Virus record (IMG/VR): IMGVR_UViG_2541047950_000002
Location: 1-51,620 of that record
Strand: one strand, 5' to 3'
Length of the DNA: 51,620 nucleotides
DNA from: a virus
Lineage: Duplodnaviria > Heunggongvirae > Uroviricota > Caudoviricetes
The notes under the pieces: generated by a model
Database searches by the model: none
What the model was told of the DNA's origin: nothing
Seen by the model: the letters and a program-made list of their open reading frames with translations, nothing else
Program-made: the position numbers and the translations under genes
In this document: positions 14,276-24,685 of the stretch, in pieces
How positions within the stretch are numbered: the stretch's first letter is position 1
Layout: each line of letters starts with the position of its first letter

Positions 14276-14292
14276 TTTTGTGGAGAAAGTTG

Positions 14293-14673
14293 ATGCGTGA
14301 TATTCAGATGGTTCTTGAACGCTGGGGGGCATGGGCGGCAAGTGGTAACACCGGGGTGGACTATTCTCCGATCGCTGCCGGATTCAAAGGACTTTTACCA
14401 TCTGCCACTAAACCACGTCCGGCCTGCTGCGATGATGACGGACTTATCATTGAAAACTGTCTTGCTCGTCTGAAGCAGAAAAAACCTGAGGAGTATTCGC
14501 TTCTCATTGCTCATTATTTGTTGCGAATATCAAAAAGACAGATAGCCAGGACGAGAAAGAAAAGCGAAAAAGCAATACGAATTGAGATGCAGATAGCCGA
14601 AGGGTTTATTGACGGATGTTTGTCTGTGCTGGGGGTAAGACTGGAGATGGACGACTGGCTGCTAAAAAAGTAA
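14293..14673 (+). CDS. Q: late-gene antiterminator Q (phage 21/933W type)
   Basis: MRDIQMVLERWGAWAA N-terminus recalls Q of the 21/933W group; last gene of the coupled early operon, followed by a terminated short leader. Confidence 0.65.
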   Translation: MRDIQMVLERWGAWAASGNTGVDYSPIAAGFKGLLPSATKPRPACCDDDGLIIENCLARLKQKKPEEYSLLIAHYLLRISKRQIARTRKKSEKAIRIEMQIAEGFIDGCLSVLGVRLEMDDWLLKK

Positions 14674-14767
14674 AAAATGATTAGCGCGGTCCGCAAAAAG
14701 TATGTCAGTATGTTAAGAGTGGTTACTTCGCCACACAGCTTAAACCCGCCGCGAGCGGGTTTTTTTA
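14674..14767 (+). promoter_or_regulatory. late promoter/qut region with tR'-like terminator (hairpin at 14743-14767)
   Basis: Intergenic segment after Q ending in hairpin CCCGC-CGCGA-GCGGG and a T7 run. Confidence 0.5.
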
Positions 14768-14888
14768 TGGCTGAAATCGGTCCTGTACAGTAAACGCGCT
14801 GGTGGTGGTGAATACCGGTCTTTCAGCTTGCTGGCTTTTTTGACAAGAGTTATTGGTGTGTCACGTTAACCGGAAAAGGGAAAAAGAC

Positions 14889-15086
14889 ATGCTGAAACAG
14901 CAGGATATGACCGAAACCGCCAGAGTGGTGTTTAATGAATTAAGCGTCACTGAACCGGCGACAGTCGGGGAGATTGCGCAGAATACTTATCTTTCACGTG
15001 AACGCTGCCAGTTAATACTGACCCAGCTTGTTATGGCGGGTCTGGCAGACTATCAGTTCGGTTGTTACAGACGCCTTCAGTCATGA
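14889..15086 (+). CDS. hypothetical small protein, 65 aa
   Basis: ATG at 14889; ORF ends inside a terminator hairpin. Confidence 0.35.
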   Translation: MLKQQDMTETARVVFNELSVTEPATVGEIAQNTYLSRERCQLILTQLVMAGLADYQFGCYRRLQS

Positions 15087-15100
15087 AGGCTTTTTTATTT
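15073..15100 (+). terminator. rho-independent terminator
   Basis: GCCTTCA-GTCA-TGAAGGC hairpin followed by TTTTTTATTT. Confidence 0.5.
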
Positions 15101-15236
15101 GTGGTAAATGGGCGGCTGGTGGGTGTTAGGGGCACTCACCAGCCATCTGCTCATGCGTCCGGATCACAAGCAAACCTCAGGCCCACTGCTTTGCGCAAAA
15201 GCAGAATGAGCCTATCAGAGACAGGCTTAATGATCC

Positions 15237-16295
15237 ATGCTTAATACTGTAAAAATATCCAGTTGTGAGTTAATCAACGCCGACTGCCTGGAATTTATCC
15301 GGTCGTTACCCGAAAATTCTGTTGACCTGATAGTCACGGATCCGCCGTACTTTAAAGTGAAGCCTGAGGGCTGGGATAACCAGTGGAAGGGCGACGATGA
15401 TTACCTGAAGTGGCTGGACCAGTGTCTTGCGCAGTTCTGGCGGGTGCTGAAACCTGCCGGAAGTCTTTACCTGTTCTGTGGCCATCGCCTAGCATCTGAT
15501 ATCGAAATCATGATGCGTGAACGCTTCAGTGTGCTGAACCATATTATCTGGGCAAAGCCGTCCGGACGCTGGAACGGGTGCAACAAGGAAAGCCTGAGGG
15601 CGTATTTCCCCGCCACAGAGCGCATTCTGTTCGCGGAACATTATCAGGGGCCGTATCGTCCGAAAGATGCCGGGTATGAGGCGAAGGGCAGGGCACTGAA
15701 ACAGCATGTGATGGCTCCGCTGATTGCTTACTTTCGTGATGCGCGTGCTGCCCTAGGGATAACGGCAAAACAGATAGTGGATGCCACAGGAAAGAAAAAC
15801 ATGGTGTCGCACTGGTTCAGTGCCAGTCAGTGGCAACTGCCGAACGAAAGTGATTATCTGAAATTACAGGCGCTGTTTGCCCGGGTGGCAGAAGAGAAGC
15901 ATCAGCGGGGTGAACTGGAGAAGCCCCACCACCAGCTGCTGGAGACGTATACTTCACTGAACCGGCAGTATGCGGAACTGCAGAGTGAATATAAGCATCT
16001 GCGGCGGTATTTTGGCGTGACGGCGCAGGTGCCGTACACCGATGTGTGGACGCATAAACCGGTGCAGTACTATCCCGGGAAACATCCGTGCGAAAAACCG
16101 GCAGAAATGCTGCAGCAGATAATCAGCGCGAGCAGTCGTCCGGGGGACCTGGTTGCAGATTTTTTCATGGGGTCGGGTTCGACAGTCAAAGCCGCGATGG
16201 CACTGGGGCGTCGTGCAACTGGTGTTGAGCTGGAGACTGAACGTTTTGAGCAGACGGTCAGGGAAGTTCAGGATTTAGCCAGTCAGAACGGATGA
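15237..16295 (+). CDS. DNA methyltransferase (N4/N6 amino-MTase, DPPY motif)
   Basis: 352 aa; N-terminal VTDPPYF catalytic motif; C-terminal FFMGSGST AdoMet-binding motif. Confidence 0.7.
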   Translation: MLNTVKISSCELINADCLEFIRSLPENSVDLIVTDPPYFKVKPEGWDNQWKGDDDYLKWLDQCLAQFWRVLKPAGSLYLFCGHRLASDIEIMMRERFSVLNHIIWAKPSGRWNGCNKESLRAYFPATERILFAEHYQGPYRPKDAGYEAKGRALKQHVMAPLIAYFRDARAALGITAKQIVDATGKKNMVSHWFSASQWQLPNESDYLKLQALFARVAEEKHQRGELEKPHHQLLETYTSLNRQYAELQSEYKHLRRYFGVTAQVPYTDVWTHKPVQYYPGKHPCEKPAEMLQQIISASSRPGDLVADFFMGSGSTVKAAMALGRRATGVELETERFEQTVREVQDLASQNG

Positions 16296-16335
16296 TATTG
16301 CAGTATTAGTTACGTACCGTTATTATCCTGCACCC

Positions 16336-16411
16336 GGCCCTTTAGCTCAGTGGTGAGAGCGAGCGACTCATAATCGCCAGGTCGCTGGTTCAAATCCAGC
16401 AAGGGCCACCA
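16336..16411 (+). tRNA. tRNA with anticodon CAT (Met or Ile2-type)
   Basis: Manual cloverleaf: 7-bp acceptor GGCCCTT/AAGGGCC, anticodon loop CTCATAA, T-loop TTCAAAT, encoded 3' CCA. Confidence 0.8.
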
Positions 16412-16420
16412 TATCACATA

Positions 16421-16497
16421 CCGCCATTAGCTCATCGGGATAGAGCGTCAGCCTTCGAAGCTGGTTGCGCGGGGTTCGAGTCCTCGATGGCGGTCCA
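16421..16497 (+). tRNA. tRNA-Arg (anticodon TCG)
   Basis: Acceptor CCGCCAT/ATGGCGG, anticodon loop CTTCGAA, T-loop TTCGAGT, encoded CCA. Confidence 0.7.
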
Positions 16498-16510
16498 TTA
16501 TCGGTATTCA

Positions 16511-16587
16511 GCGTTGTTAGCTCAGCCGGACAGAGCAATTGCCTTCTAAGCAATCGGTCACTGGTTCGAATCCAGTACAACGCGCCA
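16511..16587 (+). tRNA. tRNA-Arg (anticodon TCT, reads AGA)
   Basis: Acceptor GCGTTGT/ACAACGC, anticodon stem ATTGC/GCAAT with loop CTTCTAA, T-loop TTCGAAT, encoded CCA. Confidence 0.8.
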
Positions 16588-16600
16588 TATTTATTTACCA

Positions 16601-16626
16601 GGCTCGCTTTTGCGGGCCTTTTTTGT
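16601..16626 (+). terminator. terminator-like hairpin after the tRNA cluster
   Basis: GGCTCGC-TTTT-GCGGGCC (one mismatch) followed by a T-run. Confidence 0.4.
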
Positions 16627-16756
16627 ATCCGCGCCACGCCCGGCGCATATCAACCACAGAGCCTTTCGGGGGTGAGCTTACGGAGTGGTCAGTGTGACTT
16701 TCTCTGTGGGCAGATCGCTCCCGGGCGTTGGCTCACCCACCTAAAGGAACGTCACG

Positions 16757-17188
16757 ATGTTTGGTATTTTCAAAAAGAAAACCCGCAGAGCAGCAGCGGA
16801 AATTAAAAAGTTTGAGAAACGTGATCTGGCACAGGCGGTTATTAATGCTGCCTACCTGGTAGCCTATGCAGATGGTGAATGTGAGGCTTCAGAGAAAGCG
16901 AAGATCGAGCAGGTCTTGCGTAACCAGCCAGCGTTGTCCGCGTTTACGTCAGAAATTAATGCTATCAGTGCCACGATCACAGGTCAGCTTGACACCAACT
17001 TTAAAATTGGTCGTCGAGCGGCGTTGCGTGAAATTGAAGATGTGAAACACGATACGCGTGAAGCGGAAGATGTGCTGGATGTGGCGGTGGCCATTGCTGA
17101 AGCAGATGGTGAAATTGAGCCGGAAGAGCGTAAGGTTCTGGAAGAGATTGCTGGTGTTCTTGGCCTGCGACTGGAGAACCACCTGTGA
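16757..17188 (+). CDS. TerB-like domain protein
   Basis: 143 aa; two ADG motifs (YADGECEASEKAKI and EADGEIEPEERKVL) typical of the TerB fold; sits where stx lies in Stx phages. Confidence 0.55.
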   Translation: MFGIFKKKTRRAAAEIKKFEKRDLAQAVINAAYLVAYADGECEASEKAKIEQVLRNQPALSAFTSEINAISATITGQLDTNFKIGRRAALREIEDVKHDTREAEDVLDVAVAIAEADGEIEPEERKVLEEIAGVLGLRLENHL

Positions 17189-17349
17189 CGGTAAAACTGC
17201 GTCTGGCCGCTGTGGCACTCCTGCTGTTTCTGGTGGTGATGGTGGATTTCACCAGCAGGATCATGTCGGTGCTGGCGGATGGAGTGCTGGTGGTCGGTAT
17301 TGTGGTGGTGCTTTTTCCTTTGGTGAAAAAGGACATGCCAGGTAGTTAG
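17185..17349 (+). CDS. small hydrophobic (membrane) protein, 54 aa
   Basis: GTG overlapping the TerB-like stop; predicted product VTVKLRLAAVALLLFLVVMV... is strongly hydrophobic; not in the ORF track. Confidence 0.3.
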   Translation: MTVKLRLAAVALLLFLVVMVDFTSRIMSVLADGVLVVGIVVVLFPLVKKDMPGS

Positions 17350-17596
17350 CCGGGTATCAGTCATGCCCCGAAAATTTTAAATGTCTCACAATTCAGACGG
17401 TTGACAGTTGTCTGTTTTGCGGGGAGTTTGTTAAAAGAAACAGGCATGGTGAATCCCCCTGAGCGGAGGGGCGACTGGTGCATTAGGTGTTATCTTTGAT
17501 ACCCAGGAAAGTAAACGCGCGGGTTTGGTGGCACCGGGCTGAACTCACCGGGAGGCACCCGGCATCATGCGCATGATGATACAGATACGCGGCTTT

Positions 17597-17622
17597 AGCC
17601 CCTCTCCGGAGGGGCTTTTATA
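17597..17622 (+). terminator. rho-independent terminator
   Basis: Perfect hairpin AGCCCCTC-TCCG-GAGGGGCT followed by TTTTATATGAATTTT. Confidence 0.6.
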
Positions 17623-17650
17623 TGAATTTTGTAAGATATGAGTAAACTAA

Positions 17651-17986
17651 TTATGGACACTGTTGTTTTAGTCCGTAAGGGCATATTTGCAGAATGCAAT
17701 GATTATTAAAGCATTCTTTCAATACGTTATCTGAATTTGCAGGACATTCCTGGCTGTTTTTGATTAAATCCCAGAATCTTTTATTGAATGGTACAACGTT
17801 GTAAATGGTTACAGGTAGCACTTTGTTATTAAGTACGATACCTGTGTGAGTCAACGTAAATATACTTTCAGGAGGTAAGAAAACATCCGATTGATACCAG
17901 ATTATTAATTTTATTTTACTCCATATGGCTGAAAAAGATATTCCGCATGATGGCTGGATAACTGTATCAATCACAATCCACTTCAT
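17651..17986 (-). CDS. orphan AT-rich protein, 111 aa, Cys-rich C-terminus; convergent to the late operon
   Basis: ATG at 17984-17986 with consensus AAGGAGG RBS on the - strand; very low GC; very AT-rich upstream region. Confidence 0.55.
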
Positions 17987-18247
17987 TTAGCCTCCTTATT
18001 TATGCTGTGCTGGTGATGTTCTGAAAAGTATAAATGATAATTTTGAATGTAAACCATAGAGCAGAATTATTTTTCTGATGTTGTTTATTGTTTATTTAAA
18101 TACAGGTTTTTTATATCCCGTCTTGTAGTTTATCCATGCATACCTGCTTTATGATGAGGTTTTCATTTAAGGTATGGTTTTGTGTTTTTTTTCTGTATTT
18201 CATGTCAGGTATTTTAAAGAATTGTTTTTAATATGGTGGAAAGAACC

Positions 18248-20215
18248 ATGGCATTTAAACACTACGATGTGGTCAGGGCGGCGTCGCCGTCAGACCTTGC
18301 GGAGCGACTGACTCAAAAACTGAAGGAGGGGTGGCAGCCATTTGGCAGCCCTGTCGCCATCACGCCTTATACCCTGATGCAGGCCATTGCGGCGGAAGGT
18401 GATGTCACCACACCTGTGGTGGTGAAGCCGTCGGATGGAGAAGGCACAGTAATCAGCGCCACCAGCGACCCGGAGTATTACTTTGTTGTGGTTCTGGCAG
18501 GGCAGTCAAATGGCATGTCGTATGGTGAAGGTCTTCCGCTGCCGGAGACATATGACCGTCCGGACCCGCGTATTAAGCAGCTGGCGCGCCGCAGTACGGT
18601 GACACCGGGCGGTGCCGCCTGTAAGTATAACGACATTATTCCGGCGGACCATTGTCTGCATGATGTGCAGGACATGAGCCGTCTTAACCATCCGAAAGCG
18701 GACCTGTCAAAGGGGCAGTACGGAACCGTGGGGCAGGGGCTGCATATCGCCAAAAAACTGCTGCCGTTTATACCGGCGAATGCGGGCATTCTGCTGGTTC
18801 CGTGCTGCCGTGGTGCTTCGGCATTCACAACGGGGGCAGACGGCACATACAGCGAATCAGCCGGTGCATCGGAAAATTCACTGCGCTGGGGTGTGGGTAA
18901 GCCGCTGTATCAGGATTTGGTGAGCCGGACTAAAGCCGCACTGGCGAAGAACCCGAAAAACCGTCTGCTTGCGGTGGTGTGGATGCAGGGAGAAGGTGAT
19001 GCGGCAGTGGGGACGCATGCGCAGCATCCGGGGCTGTTTAGTGCGATGGTGAATCAGTTCAGAACGGAGCTTGCCGGTCTGGCATCACAGAGCACAGGAG
19101 GCAGCGCATCAGCGGTACCGTGGATTTGCGGGGACACAACGTATTTCTGGAAGCAGCGTCATGCGGAAGGGTATGCATCAGTATACGGAGGGTATAAGGG
19201 GAAGGAGTCGCAGAACATTTTCTTTGTACCGTTAATGACGGATGAGAATGGTGCGAATGTGCAGACCAATAACCCGGCAGAAGACCCGGACCTGGAAACC
19301 GTCGGTTATTACGGTTCAAAGTGGCGTAATGACCAGAAGACCTGGACATCAGCAGACAGGGCCAGCCATTTCAGTTCATGGGCTCGCCGTGGGATTATTT
19401 CCGACCGTCTGGCAACGGCGATTCTGTTGCACGCCGGGAGAACCGCTGAATTCATTACCGGAAAACAGCCTGATACGGTGAAGCCCACCGGACCTTCCGG
19501 TGAAGGTCCGGAGAGAGAGGCGGAAGCCCCGGCCAGTAAGCGTACCCTGATGAGTCTGCTGGCATCCGGCGAAGACCTGGCATCACAGGGCTGGCGCTAT
19601 TATCACAAACCGGCGAGCGGAGACAGTATTGATAAAAACATCGCTGAGGCTGTGGTCAGTGATGAGGGTGCCACCGGTGGTAAGGCCCTGCAACTGAACA
19701 AACCGGAAAGCCACATCTGGTTTCTGGAGCATGATGCAGCCGGGCAGGGGGCAGAGTTACTGAAGAAAGGCGGACGTGTGAGCGTGCGGTTTAAGGTGCC
19801 GGGCTCACTGGTACAGAACCGGTTTGCCCTGGGTATTTACTGGCAGTTGTCGTCCCTGCCGGAGGGTGTGTCGCTGGCGGAGGAAGGCAACGACATGCTG
19901 ATGTCCTTCTTCCTGCAGACGGATGCGACGAACCTGAACGCGATGTACCACAAGACGCAGAATGCGAAGCTGGATACGTTCGGGGCATTTGATAACGAAT
20001 GGCACACACTGTCTTTTGAGTTTGCCGGAAACAACAGTATTCAGGTGACGCCGGTACTTGATGAGAAGCGGGGCACGCCATTCACGCTGGTGAAATCTCA
20101 GGCAACAGGGGTGGCGGATAAACTTCTGCTGACTGATATCACGAAGGTAGCAACGTATACGCTGCTGATTGACAGCGTGAAGGTGGAAGTGAACAACGCG
20201 GACGCCGCGGCATGA
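18248..20215 (+). CDS. NanS-p-like sialate O-acetylesterase (N-terminal DUF1737-like, C-terminal carbohydrate esterase)
   Basis: About 655 aa; N-terminus MAFKHYDVVRAASPSDLAERL recalls the Stx-phage NanS-p/YjhS family; same position relative to Q and S as in Stx phages. Confidence 0.65.
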   Translation: MAFKHYDVVRAASPSDLAERLTQKLKEGWQPFGSPVAITPYTLMQAIAAEGDVTTPVVVKPSDGEGTVISATSDPEYYFVVVLAGQSNGMSYGEGLPLPETYDRPDPRIKQLARRSTVTPGGAACKYNDIIPADHCLHDVQDMSRLNHPKADLSKGQYGTVGQGLHIAKKLLPFIPANAGILLVPCCRGASAFTTGADGTYSESAGASENSLRWGVGKPLYQDLVSRTKAALAKNPKNRLLAVVWMQGEGDAAVGTHAQHPGLFSAMVNQFRTELAGLASQSTGGSASAVPWICGDTTYFWKQRHAEGYASVYGGYKGKESQNIFFVPLMTDENGANVQTNNPAEDPDLETVGYYGSKWRNDQKTWTSADRASHFSSWARRGIISDRLATAILLHAGRTAEFITGKQPDTVKPTGPSGEGPEREAEAPASKRTLMSLLASGEDLASQGWRYYHKPASGDSIDKNIAEAVVSDEGATGGKALQLNKPESHIWFLEHDAAGQGAELLKKGGRVSVRFKVPGSLVQNRFALGIYWQLSSLPEGVSLAEEGNDMLMSFFLQTDATNLNAMYHKTQNAKLDTFGAFDNEWHTLSFEFAGNNSIQVTPVLDEKRGTPFTLVKSQATGVADKLLLTDITKVATYTLLIDSVKVEVNNADAAA

Positions 20216-20365
20216 TGAAAAAGGCCGCCAGCAATGAAGGAAAGGGATGAACTTTTGTCCACTACATGAATGCTGGCGGCTGGTAAAACGATCATGATGA
20301 CAGCGAAGTCTGGGTGTTTTTCTACAAAAATAAGTAAATTATGTCAACTATAACGGTGAGAAAAC

Positions 20366-20545
20366 ATGACATTTCTGAACCAGTTAATGCTGTACTTCTG
20401 TACGGCGGTCTGTGTGCTGTATCTTCTTTCGGGTGGGTACAGGGCTGTGCGCGATTTCTGGCGCAGACAGATTGATAAAAGGGCCGCTGAGAAAATCAGC
20501 GCCAGTCAGTCAGCCGGAACCAGACCCGAAGAGCCGCTCATTTAG
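20366..20545 (+). CDS. small membrane protein, 59 aa
   Basis: ATG with upstream GGTGAG; hydrophobic N-terminus; not in the ORF track. Confidence 0.3.
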   Translation: MTFLNQLMLYFCTAVCVLYLLSGGYRAVRDFWRRQIDKRAAEKISASQSAGTRPEEPLI

Positions 20546-20585
20546 TTGCAATCTTCTTTACAACACCTTTCAACGAGAAAATCCC

Positions 20586-20870
20586 ATGTCAGAAATAAAA
20601 CCCCTGGTCACTGCTGAGGCAGTGAAAGACGCGCTGCGCTCAGAAGATGTGCGTGGAGCACTGAAACAGAAAGTCCGCCAGACATTTGAAGCGCAGATAG
20701 AAGCGGAGGTGGATGCGATTCTGGATACGCTACTGGGCGAGCAGCCAGGCGAACAGCCAGAGCCGGAACCGCAACCGGAAGATATCACCTCAGAAAACGG
20801 CGATATTCAGCCCGAATCACCGGTGGTTGATGCGACTGAAGCACAACCCGAACCGGGCACAATGCTGTAA
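20586..20870 (+). CDS. hypothetical acidic protein, 94 aa
   Basis: ATG at 20586 within the longer track ORF 20412-20870; acidic Pro/Glu-rich C-terminus. Confidence 0.4.
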
Positions 20871-20946: not shown

Positions 20947-21162
20947 ATGTACCAGATGGAAAAAATAACAACAGGTGTGTCATACACCACGTCAGCGGTG
21001 GGAACGGGCTACTGGTTCCTGCAGCTGCTGGACAGGGTTTCCCCGTCTCAGTGGGCGGCAATAGGCGTGCTGGGGAGTCTGCTGTTTGGTCTGCTGACGT
21101 ACCTGACGAACCTGTATTTCAAAATCAGAGAGGACCGTCGTAAGGCGGCACGGGGAGAGTAG
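20947..21162 (+). CDS. S: pinholin (S21-type class II holin) with dual-start motif
   Basis: [71 protein letters not shown] closely matches phage 21 S as recalled; Met1/Met4 dual start; GGAG RBS. Confidence 0.75.
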
Positions 21163-21165
21163 GTG

Positions 21166-21723
21166 ATGAACCATGAAGAAATGAATCAGCGCTTCAGTCG
21201 TCTGGAAAATGAAATTGCTGAACTGAATAAAAAACTGTCGGCGCTGATGCCTTCTGAAGATGAAAAAAAACGCCGCGATGAGCAGTTTGCTGCGTTTGAC
21301 GATTATTGTCGGAAAGTGATGAGCAGAAATCTCGCAGAGTGTTTCAGTATTCATAATGATAATTTCAGTGAGCTGGAATGGGAGTGTAACCGGCCATCCT
21401 TTGTTGTATCCGGTGATGCTGGGAAAATAACCATCTCAGAAAATGGGAAAGTAACACCTCCATCGCACCAGCACAGTGAGGAGCTCATTGAATTTGCCAT
21501 TGATTACCTGAAGAACAATAAAAAACAGGGGCTGATGCAGCGCATTGGTCGTTGCATGGGGTATCTGCAGGTAGCCGCTGAGATTGAAGCGCTGGCCAGT
21601 GGTGCTGATAAGGATGCAGTTGTGCGGGAGACCGTTCTTCGTGATTTCAATACTCCACCCTTTAAGACTGAGCCTGATAACTGGATCCAGCCGGGGCTGA
21701 CTTATCTTAAAGTGCGTATTTAG
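21166..21723 (+). CDS. hypothetical protein, about 185 aa, inserted between holin and endolysin
   Basis: Starts immediately after the holin stop (GTG 21163 or ATG 21166); no recognisable lysis-protein features. Confidence 0.45.
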   Translation: MNHEEMNQRFSRLENEIAELNKKLSALMPSEDEKKRRDEQFAAFDDYCRKVMSRNLAECFSIHNDNFSELEWECNRPSFVVSGDAGKITISENGKVTPPSHQHSEELIEFAIDYLKNNKKQGLMQRIGRCMGYLQVAAEIEALASGADKDAVVRETVLRDFNTPPFKTEPDNWIQPGLTYLKVRI

Positions 21724-21759: not shown

Positions 21760-22293
21760 ATGAACGCAAAAATCAAATACGGCCTGTCAGCTGCTGTTCT
21801 GGCGCTGATTGCCGCAGGGGCTTCTGCGCCTGAAATCCTCGACCAGTTTCTGGATGAAAAAGAAGGTAACCACACCACGGCATACCGTGATGGTGTGGGT
21901 ATCTGGACCATCTGCCGTGGAGCCACCCGGGTGGATGGTAATCCTGTGATTCCTGGCATGAAGCTGTCGAAGGGGAAATGCGACCGGGTTAACGCCATTG
22001 AGCGTGATAAGGCGCTGGCATGGGTGGAGAAAAACATCAAAGTGCCACTGACTGAACCCCAGAAAGCGGGAATTGCGTCATTCTGTCCTTACAACATTGG
22101 CCCCGGTAAGTGTTTCCCGTCGACGTTTTATAAACGAATTAATGCAGGCGATCGAAAAGGTGCCTGCGAAGCGATTCGCTGGTGGATTAAGGACGGTGGC
22201 AGAGACTGCCGTATTCGCTCAAATAATTGCTACGGTCAGGTATCCCGTCGCGACCAGGAGAGTGCGCTGGCATGCTGGGGTATCGACAGGTAG
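21760..22293 (+). CDS. R: SAR endolysin (R21-type lysozyme)
   Basis: N-terminal signal-anchor-release segment (GLSAAVLALIAAGASAPE); lysozyme-like core; paired with the pinholin as in phage 21. Confidence 0.75.
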   Translation: MNAKIKYGLSAAVLALIAAGASAPEILDQFLDEKEGNHTTAYRDGVGIWTICRGATRVDGNPVIPGMKLSKGKCDRVNAIERDKALAWVEKNIKVPLTEPQKAGIASFCPYNIGPGKCFPSTFYKRINAGDRKGACEAIRWWIKDGGRDCRIRSNNCYGQVSRRDQESALACWGIDR

Positions 22294-24181: not shown

Positions 24182-24685
24182 ATGGTGAGCATAAACCGAA
24201 TTCTTTCCGCGTTTACTGTTATTCTGCTGGTGGTCTGTGGTGCGCTTAGTCTGGGGCTGAATCATTACCGCGATAACGCCATCACCTACAAAGCGCAGCG
24301 CGATAAAAAAGCCAGAGAGCTGGAACAGGCGAATGCCACCATTACTGACATGCAGGTGCGCCAGCGTGATGTTGCTGCGCTCGATGCAAAATACTCGAGG
24401 GAATTAGCCGATGCGAGAGCTGAAAATGAAACTCTGCGTGCTGATATTGCCGCTGGTCGTAAGCGCCTGCGGCTCAACGCCACCTGCCCCGGTACCGTGC
24501 GTGAAGCCACCGGCACCTCCGGCGTGGATAATGCAACCGGCCCCCGACTGGCAGACACCGCTGAACGGGATTATTTCAACCTCAGAGAACGGTTGATGAC
24601 AATGCAGAAGCAGCTGGAAGGGGCGCAGGAATATATACGCACTCAGTGCACTAAGCTGGCTTTTTATTATCCGGAGGATACATGA
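24182..24685 (+). CDS. Rz: i-spanin Rz
   Basis: 167 aa; strong similarity to lambda Rz as recalled (NHYRDNAITYKAQRDK..., VDNA..PRLADTAERDYF). Confidence 0.8.
   Translation: MVSINRILSAFTVILLVVCGALSLGLNHYRDNAITYKAQRDKKARELEQANATITDMQVRQRDVAALDAKYSRELADARAENETLRADIAAGRKRLRLNATCPGTVREATGTSGVDNATGPRLADTAERDYFNLRERLMTMQKQLEGAQEYIRTQCTKLAFYYPEDT
24411..24596 (+). CDS. Rz1: o-spanin Rz1 (lipoprotein) embedded in Rz in the +1 frame
   Basis: 61 aa; lipobox LVVSAC and proline-rich CVKPPAPPAWIMQPAPDWQTPLNGII match lambda Rz1. Confidence 0.7.
   Translation: MRELKMKLCVLILPLVVSACGSTPPAPVPCVKPPAPPAWIMQPAPDWQTPLNGIISTSENG

Follow-up and report, generated by a model that had tools for sequence, protein, structure and literature searches.

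A conserved, uncharacterised gene between the pinholin and endolysin genes of a Stx-phage-like prophage

The lysis cassette described here raises the question of what a hydrophilic reading frame contributes between a pinholin gene (S) and an endolysin gene (R) that lie side by side in phage 21 and 933W. The window, by which we mean the whole stretch of 51,620 nucleotides that was analysed (IMG/VR record IMGVR_UViG_2541047950_000002), contains upstream of this frame a gene (20947..21162, + strand) for a 71-aa S21-type class II holin, or pinholin, that matched PF04971 (Phage_holin_2_1, E 9e-33) and PHROG holin families and that PGAP labels 'class II holin family protein' in a near-identical prophage. 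The holin N-terminus, MYQMEK, has methionines at positions 1 and 4, which we take to be a dual-start arrangement as in phage 21 S, where the dual start provides the antiholin. The ORF under study (21166..21723, + strand) runs from an ATG to a TAG stop (21721-21723) and encodes an acidic protein of 185 aa (GRAVY -0.69, pI 5.35) that ends in GLTYLKVRI. A GTG at 21163 is an alternative start in the ORF list and would give 186 aa (21163..21723, +); the ATG at 21166 is the start chosen by PGAP in the 99.3%-identical prophage of strain FHI_NMBU_10. The endolysin gene (21760..22293, +) begins 36 nt beyond the ORF stop and encodes a lysozyme of 177 aa (PF00959, E 4.7e-24; PHROG 7, endolysin). From its Gly/Ala-rich hydrophobic N-terminal segment and its E-x8-D-x5-T motif, read alongside what is known of R21, we take it to be a SAR-type enzyme with its catalytic triad. 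An earlier note had described a hydrophilic ORF of this size that begins at the holin stop and comes between the genes for an S21-type pinholin and a SAR endolysin, and this description is borne out by the domain matches on either side.

The GTG and then the ATG come straight after the holin stop (TAG, 21160-21162), the ATG 4 nt past it, and the spacing from the holin stop to the start is constant across related loci. A Shine-Dalgarno-like GGGGAGAG (21152..21159, +) can be read within the last holin codons, and its GGAG (21154-21157) stands 8 nt ahead of the ATG. Scanning with simple consensus patterns found no terminator-like site between S, the ORF and R, and no promoter-like or terminator-like site flanking the ORF, the latter being a weak negative. 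As there is no terminator-like site and the GGAG and start codon sit at the holin stop, the natural reading is that the ORF would be co-transcribed with S and R from the late promoter downstream of Q (antiterminator gene at 14278-14673) and that it is probably translationally coupled to the holin gene. From this layout we infer that the ORF is placed for co-expression with the lysis genes, as the earlier note had proposed. On the opposite strand a 120-aa ORF (20992-21354, -) overlaps the 3' half of the holin gene and the start of the 185-aa ORF; nothing marks it as a gene, and coding on the sense strand probably accounts for its open frame.

A known function was sought by sequence and by fold. 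Scans of Pfam and NCBIfam returned nothing for the ORF, or only weak matches of coiled-coil type (Relaxase_C, bMERB, DegQ, ABC_tran_CTD), and a sequence profile search of the PDB gave nothing below E 0.02. PADLOC-DB 2.0 at E <= 0.1 gave no match for the ORF, for its distant relatives or for the partner gene discussed below, and the 185-aa protein is not a known defence protein. An AF2 model built on a 21-sequence alignment reached a mean pLDDT of 82; with a shallow alignment of 12 E. coli sequences the C-terminal domain (CTD) had scored 51, which rose to 82 when Salmonella and metagenomic relatives were added. Three fold searches were run with this model, all without a usable match; Foldseek comparisons produced nothing below E 0.9 against the PDB and a best E of 0.12 against BFVD. 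The structure prediction suggested by the earlier note has given a model with no match in either database, and the absence of a known function holds across these sequence and fold searches. A holin or antiholin was ruled out, as the protein has no transmembrane segment (highest Kyte-Doolittle 19-residue window 0.76), no signal sequence for export and no holin match in Pfam or PHROG; a spanin (Rz/Rz1) was ruled out in the same way, there being no N-terminal transmembrane segment, lipobox or PF03245 match. The literature on DUF1327, ydfR, essQ and Stx lysis cassettes yielded no published study of the 185-aa gene, its functional data being those on K-12 YdfR, and reviews of Stx-phage lysis cassettes are silent on an extra gene between S and R (PMC8136144).

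The protein belongs to PHROG 1085, a family annotated as of unknown function (E 8e-110, 367.9 bits), with residues 2-186 of the 186-aa GTG-start query corresponding to positions 117-296 of the 296 in the profile. Its N-terminal module (residues 3-61; 21172..21348, +) is predicted by AF2 to form two long helices arranged as a hairpin (residues 3-27 and 31-61, pLDDT 80-92) and carries the heptad-like motif LENEIAELNKKL; the pattern LE..I..L.K.L of this coiled coil is kept in E. coli and Salmonella relatives. A linker predicted to be disordered (residues 63-71) leads into the conserved CTD (residues 72-185; 21379..21720, +). The CTD is modelled as an alpha/beta domain in which three short strands (79-97) are followed by helices (101-117, 123-144, 151-161 and 178-184), with pLDDT of 78-96 over residues 71-160 and 67-76 over the last ~25 residues. 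Conserved in the CTD are H103, GRCMGxLQxAxEI (128-140), PPxK (164-167), W173, PG (176-177) and YLK (180-182).

Relatives of the protein are assembled from three modules, namely an optional N-terminal YdfR/DUF1327 domain (PF07041; about 75-100 aa, with the motif YELVVKG...EGA.LEFYEA), the short coiled-coil hairpin and the ~115-aa CTD. K-12 YdfR (103 aa), which matches positions 1-79 of PHROG 1085, is the DUF1327 domain alone; phage 86 gp05 (268 aa) joins that domain to the CTD; proteins of 287-296 aa, a size taken from database annotation, have all three and combine PF07041 with 98% of the 185-aa protein; and proteins of 185 and 213 aa consist of coiled coil and CTD only, as does the window copy. 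The YdfR domain is fused to the CTD in relatives of 268-385 aa, and also to the coiled coil in the 287-385-aa forms. In the 185-aa protein itself DUF1327 (PF07041) gave no Pfam match at E <= 0.1, and tblastn with the N-terminal domains of K-12 YdfR and phage 86 as queries found no match anywhere in the window. Lacking this defining domain, the 185-aa protein falls outside the YdfR/DUF1327 family, although it shares the slot of that family and has relatives in which the two are fused. Residues 5-66 of the 186-aa query, the coiled-coil module, also occur C-terminally in proteins whose N-terminal domains differ, for example in a 181-aa protein (P0134) where they correspond to positions 120-181 of PHROG 2091; this module thus moves independently.

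Searching 5.8 billion proteins returned 165 relatives, and among the matches listed all 120 with a source name were from E. coli; no more than 42 clusters came out when 1.84 billion representatives were searched exhaustively with an HMM. A profile of the CTD found 80 proteins, and those with an organism name all came from Escherichia, Shigella or Salmonella. Beyond phages of these three genera, the family has only a few metagenomic relatives. The Salmonella relatives (165-185 aa, about 35% identity) have the same layout of coiled coil and CTD, which makes the 185-aa form an architecture in its own right, more than a mere truncation. At the DNA level the window copy is a mosaic, with a 5' part like the Stx2_12E129 type and a 3' part, together with the spacer before R, like the ATCC 25922 type.

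The ORF is a genuine gene under selection. For the CTD, dN/dS was 0.13-0.38 across unsaturated pairs, which indicates purifying selection; the comparison of the window with locus L006, the only informative pair of two 185-aa copies, gave 0.31. About 10 of the 80 IMG/VR loci with this CTD are broken, and selection is therefore not strong everywhere. A chance ORF is ruled out by the conservation and the dN/dS values. The base composition of the ORF is foreign relative to its neighbours (GC 45.8% and GC3 45.4%, against 55.4% and 67.6% for the holin gene and 53.5% and 55.4% for the endolysin gene). The exact protein is present in RefSeq as WP_021574140.1, a 'hypothetical protein'; the holin-ORF-lysozyme triple was found at >=80% query coverage in 724 of 5,426 complete E. 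coli genomes, and the ORF alone matched in 886 genomes. The sequence is thus already in databases in hundreds of genomes, and the gene is uncharacterised, while occupancy of the slot is common and not a one-off insertion.

How common it is depends on where one looks. With an artificial query of S fused directly to R, evenly spread samples of E. coli genomes and of phage records were surveyed. Of 29 places sampled in E. coli chromosomes where S and R were joined, only two were contiguous and 27 had an intervening gene, 25 of these genes being annotated 'YdfR family protein'. Phage records gave the reverse picture, with 39 of 50 places contiguous, including VT2-Sakai and many Stx2a phages, and 11 occupied; in VT2-Sakai and most Stx phages the adjacent S and R encode holins and endolysins about 90-95% identical to those of the window. 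The statement in the earlier note that S and R are normally adjacent therefore stands for phage 21, 933W and Stx phages of the VT2-Sakai type, but not for E. coli chromosomes. That note had also let its reading hinge on whether the gene is a standard, characterised part of the cassette family; a standard part it is, but an uncharacterised one.

Among the best 80 IMG/VR loci with the CTD, an S21 holin gene lies directly upstream of the CTD gene in all 78 that are informative, having enough flanking sequence. By the sizes called by the ORF script, 22 of the 80 encode an intact 185-aa form whose start is conserved 4 nt past the holin stop, which ties as the most frequent architecture with the 268-aa type (also 22); a further 10 encode 213 or 217 aa, 14 encode ~325-385 aa, 10 are broken and two are cut by the contig end. 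Decay is seen beside an intact holin gene: the identical holin protein WP_000284506.1 accompanies an intact copy in one case and a copy flagged by PGAP as a pseudogene in another. For E. coli ATCC 25922 (L005, 2053-2943) PGAP gives only an 'incomplete YdfR family protein' and leaves the CTD DNA, 95% identical to the window, unannotated; a similar pattern of decay occurs in many of the sampled genomes, mostly human isolates. Copies in Shigella flexneri and E. coli ECMA0423 (L007 and L008, 3683-4332) are frameshifted close to the 3' end.

Relatives from outside E. coli do not occupy the S-R junction: in Salmonella the gene comes after Q and before an HP1-type holin gene (PF16080), and on a metagenomic contig it precedes an unclassified multi-TMD (three-TMD-like) ORF and a GH108 endolysin gene. 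Many relatives are followed by a convergent gene of 104-105 aa (PHROG 1853, annotated as of unknown function), which is found in E. coli Stx phages, Salmonella prophages and the metagenomic phage with 40-77% identity across hosts. It is present in 35 of the 80 IMG/VR loci, and its coordinates, all on the - strand, are for example 4657-4971 in L001, 4359-4673 in L002, 4021-4338 in L009 and 495-812 in L018. Its product keeps the motif YLDCEWD...QK.R.F and matched neither Pfam nor PADLOC. The window has no copy. The CTD gene and the PHROG 1853 gene may form a two-gene module.

The late region upstream of the cassette (14278-20870) has the layout of a Stx phage without stx genes. Behind the Q gene come a DNA methylase gene (15237-16295), three tRNA genes (Met-CAT, Arg-TCG and Arg-TCT; 16336-16587), a TerB-family gene at the usual place of stx (16757-17188) and a NanS-p-type sialate esterase gene (18233-20215), then DUF1378 and DUF826. 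A tellurite-resistance gene replacing stx2d has been described in an O157:H7 prophage (PMC9413875). A 111-aa ORF on the opposite strand (17651-17986, -) corresponds to a gene for the anti-adapter protein IraM that PGAP calls as frameshifted in the FHI_NMBU_10 prophage, and had no Pfam match. A second interruption of the lysis cassette, between R and Rz, consists of genes for the antirepressor Ant (P22_AR_N, PF10547; 22567-23136) and for a Dam-type N6-adenine methylase (PF02086; 23406-24173), which are followed by an Rz-type spanin gene (PF03245, E 6.6e-50; 24182..24685, +). The inserts have a GC content of 46-48%, against about 54% for R and Rz.

Among named systems the closest in position is YdfR of K-12 (b1555, DUF1327/PF07041), which is encoded between the S21-type holin gene essQ and the lysozyme gene rrrQ in the Qin prophage (essQ-ydfR-rrrQ) and matches the same PHROG 1085 profile. 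The two proteins nevertheless have essentially no homologous residues in common; K-12 YdfR has neither the coiled coil nor the CTD, and the 185-aa protein has no DUF1327. A 2026 study (PMC13232886) mapped binding to the catalytic half of RNase E to residues 1-72 of K-12 YdfR and reported that the protein co-purifies with RNA. This RNase E-binding domain is absent from the 185-aa protein. Nearer in sequence are two Stx2 phage proteins that are also encoded between holin and endolysin genes: gp05 of phage 86 ('YdfR family protein', YP_794052.1), which combines DUF1327 with a CTD 82% identical in protein, and a 213-aa hypothetical protein of the Stx2a phage Stx2_12E129, which shares the coiled coil and has a CTD about 85% identical. 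Both differ from the window copy in being longer, in having a different middle segment and in being followed by the convergent PHROG 1853 gene.

Like lambdoid morons (bor and lom of lambda, ant and dam of the window), the ORF is an extra gene at a late-operon boundary that is missing from syntenic relatives and has a lower GC content. Classical morons come with a promoter and a terminator of their own, and expression in the lysogen is frequent; in contrast, the ORF has no such signals that the weak pattern scan detected and is apparently coupled to the holin gene. Of three features by which a moron may be recognized, absence from the same place in related phages and a base composition unlike that of the flanking genes were thus found, whereas a promoter and terminator of its own were not, by what is a weak test. 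The late-expressed moron that the earlier note had offered as one option fits both the GC content (45.8% against 53.5-55%) and the adjacency of S and R in related phages. With antiholins and other lysis regulators (S21-71, lambda S107, T4 RI, P1 LydB) the ORF has in common its place inside the lysis cassette and an expected co-expression with the holin. Known antiholins are membrane proteins or periplasmic proteins that bind the holin. The 185-aa protein differs from them in being soluble, with no transmembrane segment or signal sequence, and resembles them neither in sequence nor in fold.

Could the protein act on lysis itself? The pinholin ends in a basic cytoplasmic tail, and an acidic cytoplasmic protein (pI 5.35) might delay or sharpen triggering by binding this C-terminal tail or a different component of the lysis system. 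The inferred coupling to the holin gene would fit such a modulator, as would the position exactly between S and R at 78 of 78 informative E. coli-type loci and the fact that distant relatives also adjoin lysis genes. We nevertheless consider this unlikely. Those distant relatives are paired with unrelated holins (of the PF16080 type, or the unclassified three-TMD-like ORF) and with a GH108 endolysin, and there the gene is upstream of the holin gene with a convergent gene in between. Many phage genomes have near-identical S and R genes with nothing between them, and copies of the gene are often pseudogenised beside an intact holin gene, as in ATCC 25922. Moreover, the window holin has its own putative Met1/Met4 dual start, which in S21 is the established source of antiholin, and the 185-aa protein has no membrane segment. 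Another possibility is that the gene is the orphan half of a two-gene module with PHROG 1853, serving exclusion, defence or a toxin-antidote-like function, and that it has lost its partner here and is possibly inactive. The partner is kept from E. coli Stx phages to Salmonella and the metagenomic phage at 40-77% identity, and its presence in 35 of 80 loci and absence from the window would be in line with such a loss. It also opposes the late operon, the classic layout of lysogen-expressed morons such as bor. This explanation seems improbable to us, given that neither gene matches any PADLOC model and that partner-less forms are common, the 185-aa form being intact in the absence of the partner at 21 of its 22 loci; the CTD dN/dS of 0.31 between the window and L006 and the lack, in the weak scan, of a promoter-like site belonging to the forward gene also count against it.

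It could also be asked whether the ORF is a decaying remnant, a 5'-deleted piece of a longer YdfR-family gene whose frame has stayed open by chance and which has no function. Longer relatives do have DUF1327 ahead of the same 185 residues, PGAP treats related copies as pseudogenes, incomplete members of the YdfR family, and about 10 of 80 loci are visibly broken, with frameshifts in L007 and L008. However, coiled coil and CTD recur together in Salmonella at about 35% identity, the exact 185-aa form is intact at 22 of 80 loci with its start conserved 4 nt past the holin stop, dN/dS is below 0.4 and a good Shine-Dalgarno sequence precedes the start, and we regard a functionless remnant as very improbable. 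A truncated pseudogene was likewise judged unlikely from the recurrence of this architecture in Salmonella and in 22 of the 80 loci.

The reading that we favour, with moderate confidence, is that the ORF is a non-essential late accessory gene, of moron type, in a lambdoid, stx-less, Stx-phage-like prophage and no part of the lysis machinery itself, and that its product is cytoplasmic, dispensable for lysis and possibly related to RNA turnover. A requirement for the ORF in pinholin/SAR-endolysin lysis is very unlikely, because the gene is absent from syntenic phages and occurs as a pseudogene beside an identical holin. We propose that the 185-aa protein would be synthesised in the cytoplasm late in induction, alongside the lysis proteins, that it would probably oligomerise through the modelled helical hairpin, and that the CTD would probably bind a partner. 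The domain fusion to YdfR is the only mechanistic lead on that partner: as coiled coil and CTD are joined to an RNase E-binding domain in relatives, they may, by Rosetta-stone logic, take part in the same process. On this analogy the likeliest activity would be to modulate host RNA turnover late in infection, a role that we nevertheless regard as doubtful. The RNA-turnover proposal is drawn from domain fusion; homology assigned no activity to the coiled coil or the CTD. Several points count against the accessory reading or its parts. The 185-aa copy lacks DUF1327, which leaves fusion logic as its link to RNase E; direct RNA binding by so acidic a protein is disfavoured; the autonomous expression signals of classical morons were not detected; and the strict placement by lysis genes, even with unrelated holins and endolysins, would be compatible with a lysis-related role. 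A bolder suggestion, whose chances we think slim, is that the protein has a new fold and represents a new class of cytoplasmic late-infection factor tied to lysis genes. As a modulator of the holin clock it would act on the cytoplasmic tails of the holin; as a factor directed at RNase E it would protect late or lysis mRNAs, with the YdfR domain as an optional targeting module.

Pinholin/SAR-endolysin cassettes set the timing of lysis and of phage and toxin release in E. coli lambdoid and Stx prophages, and most of the chromosomal cassettes sampled in E. coli hold an extra conserved gene between S and R. What looked like an oddity of one prophage is now a defined and testable family with clear module boundaries. 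If neither lysis timing nor late mRNA stability is affected by this gene, it would be one more late-operon moron; if either is affected, models of lysis and toxin release would change. Were the reading as a late factor with a new fold to prove true, pinholin/SAR-endolysin lysis, and with it the timing of Shiga toxin release in STEC prophages, would gain a further level of regulation.
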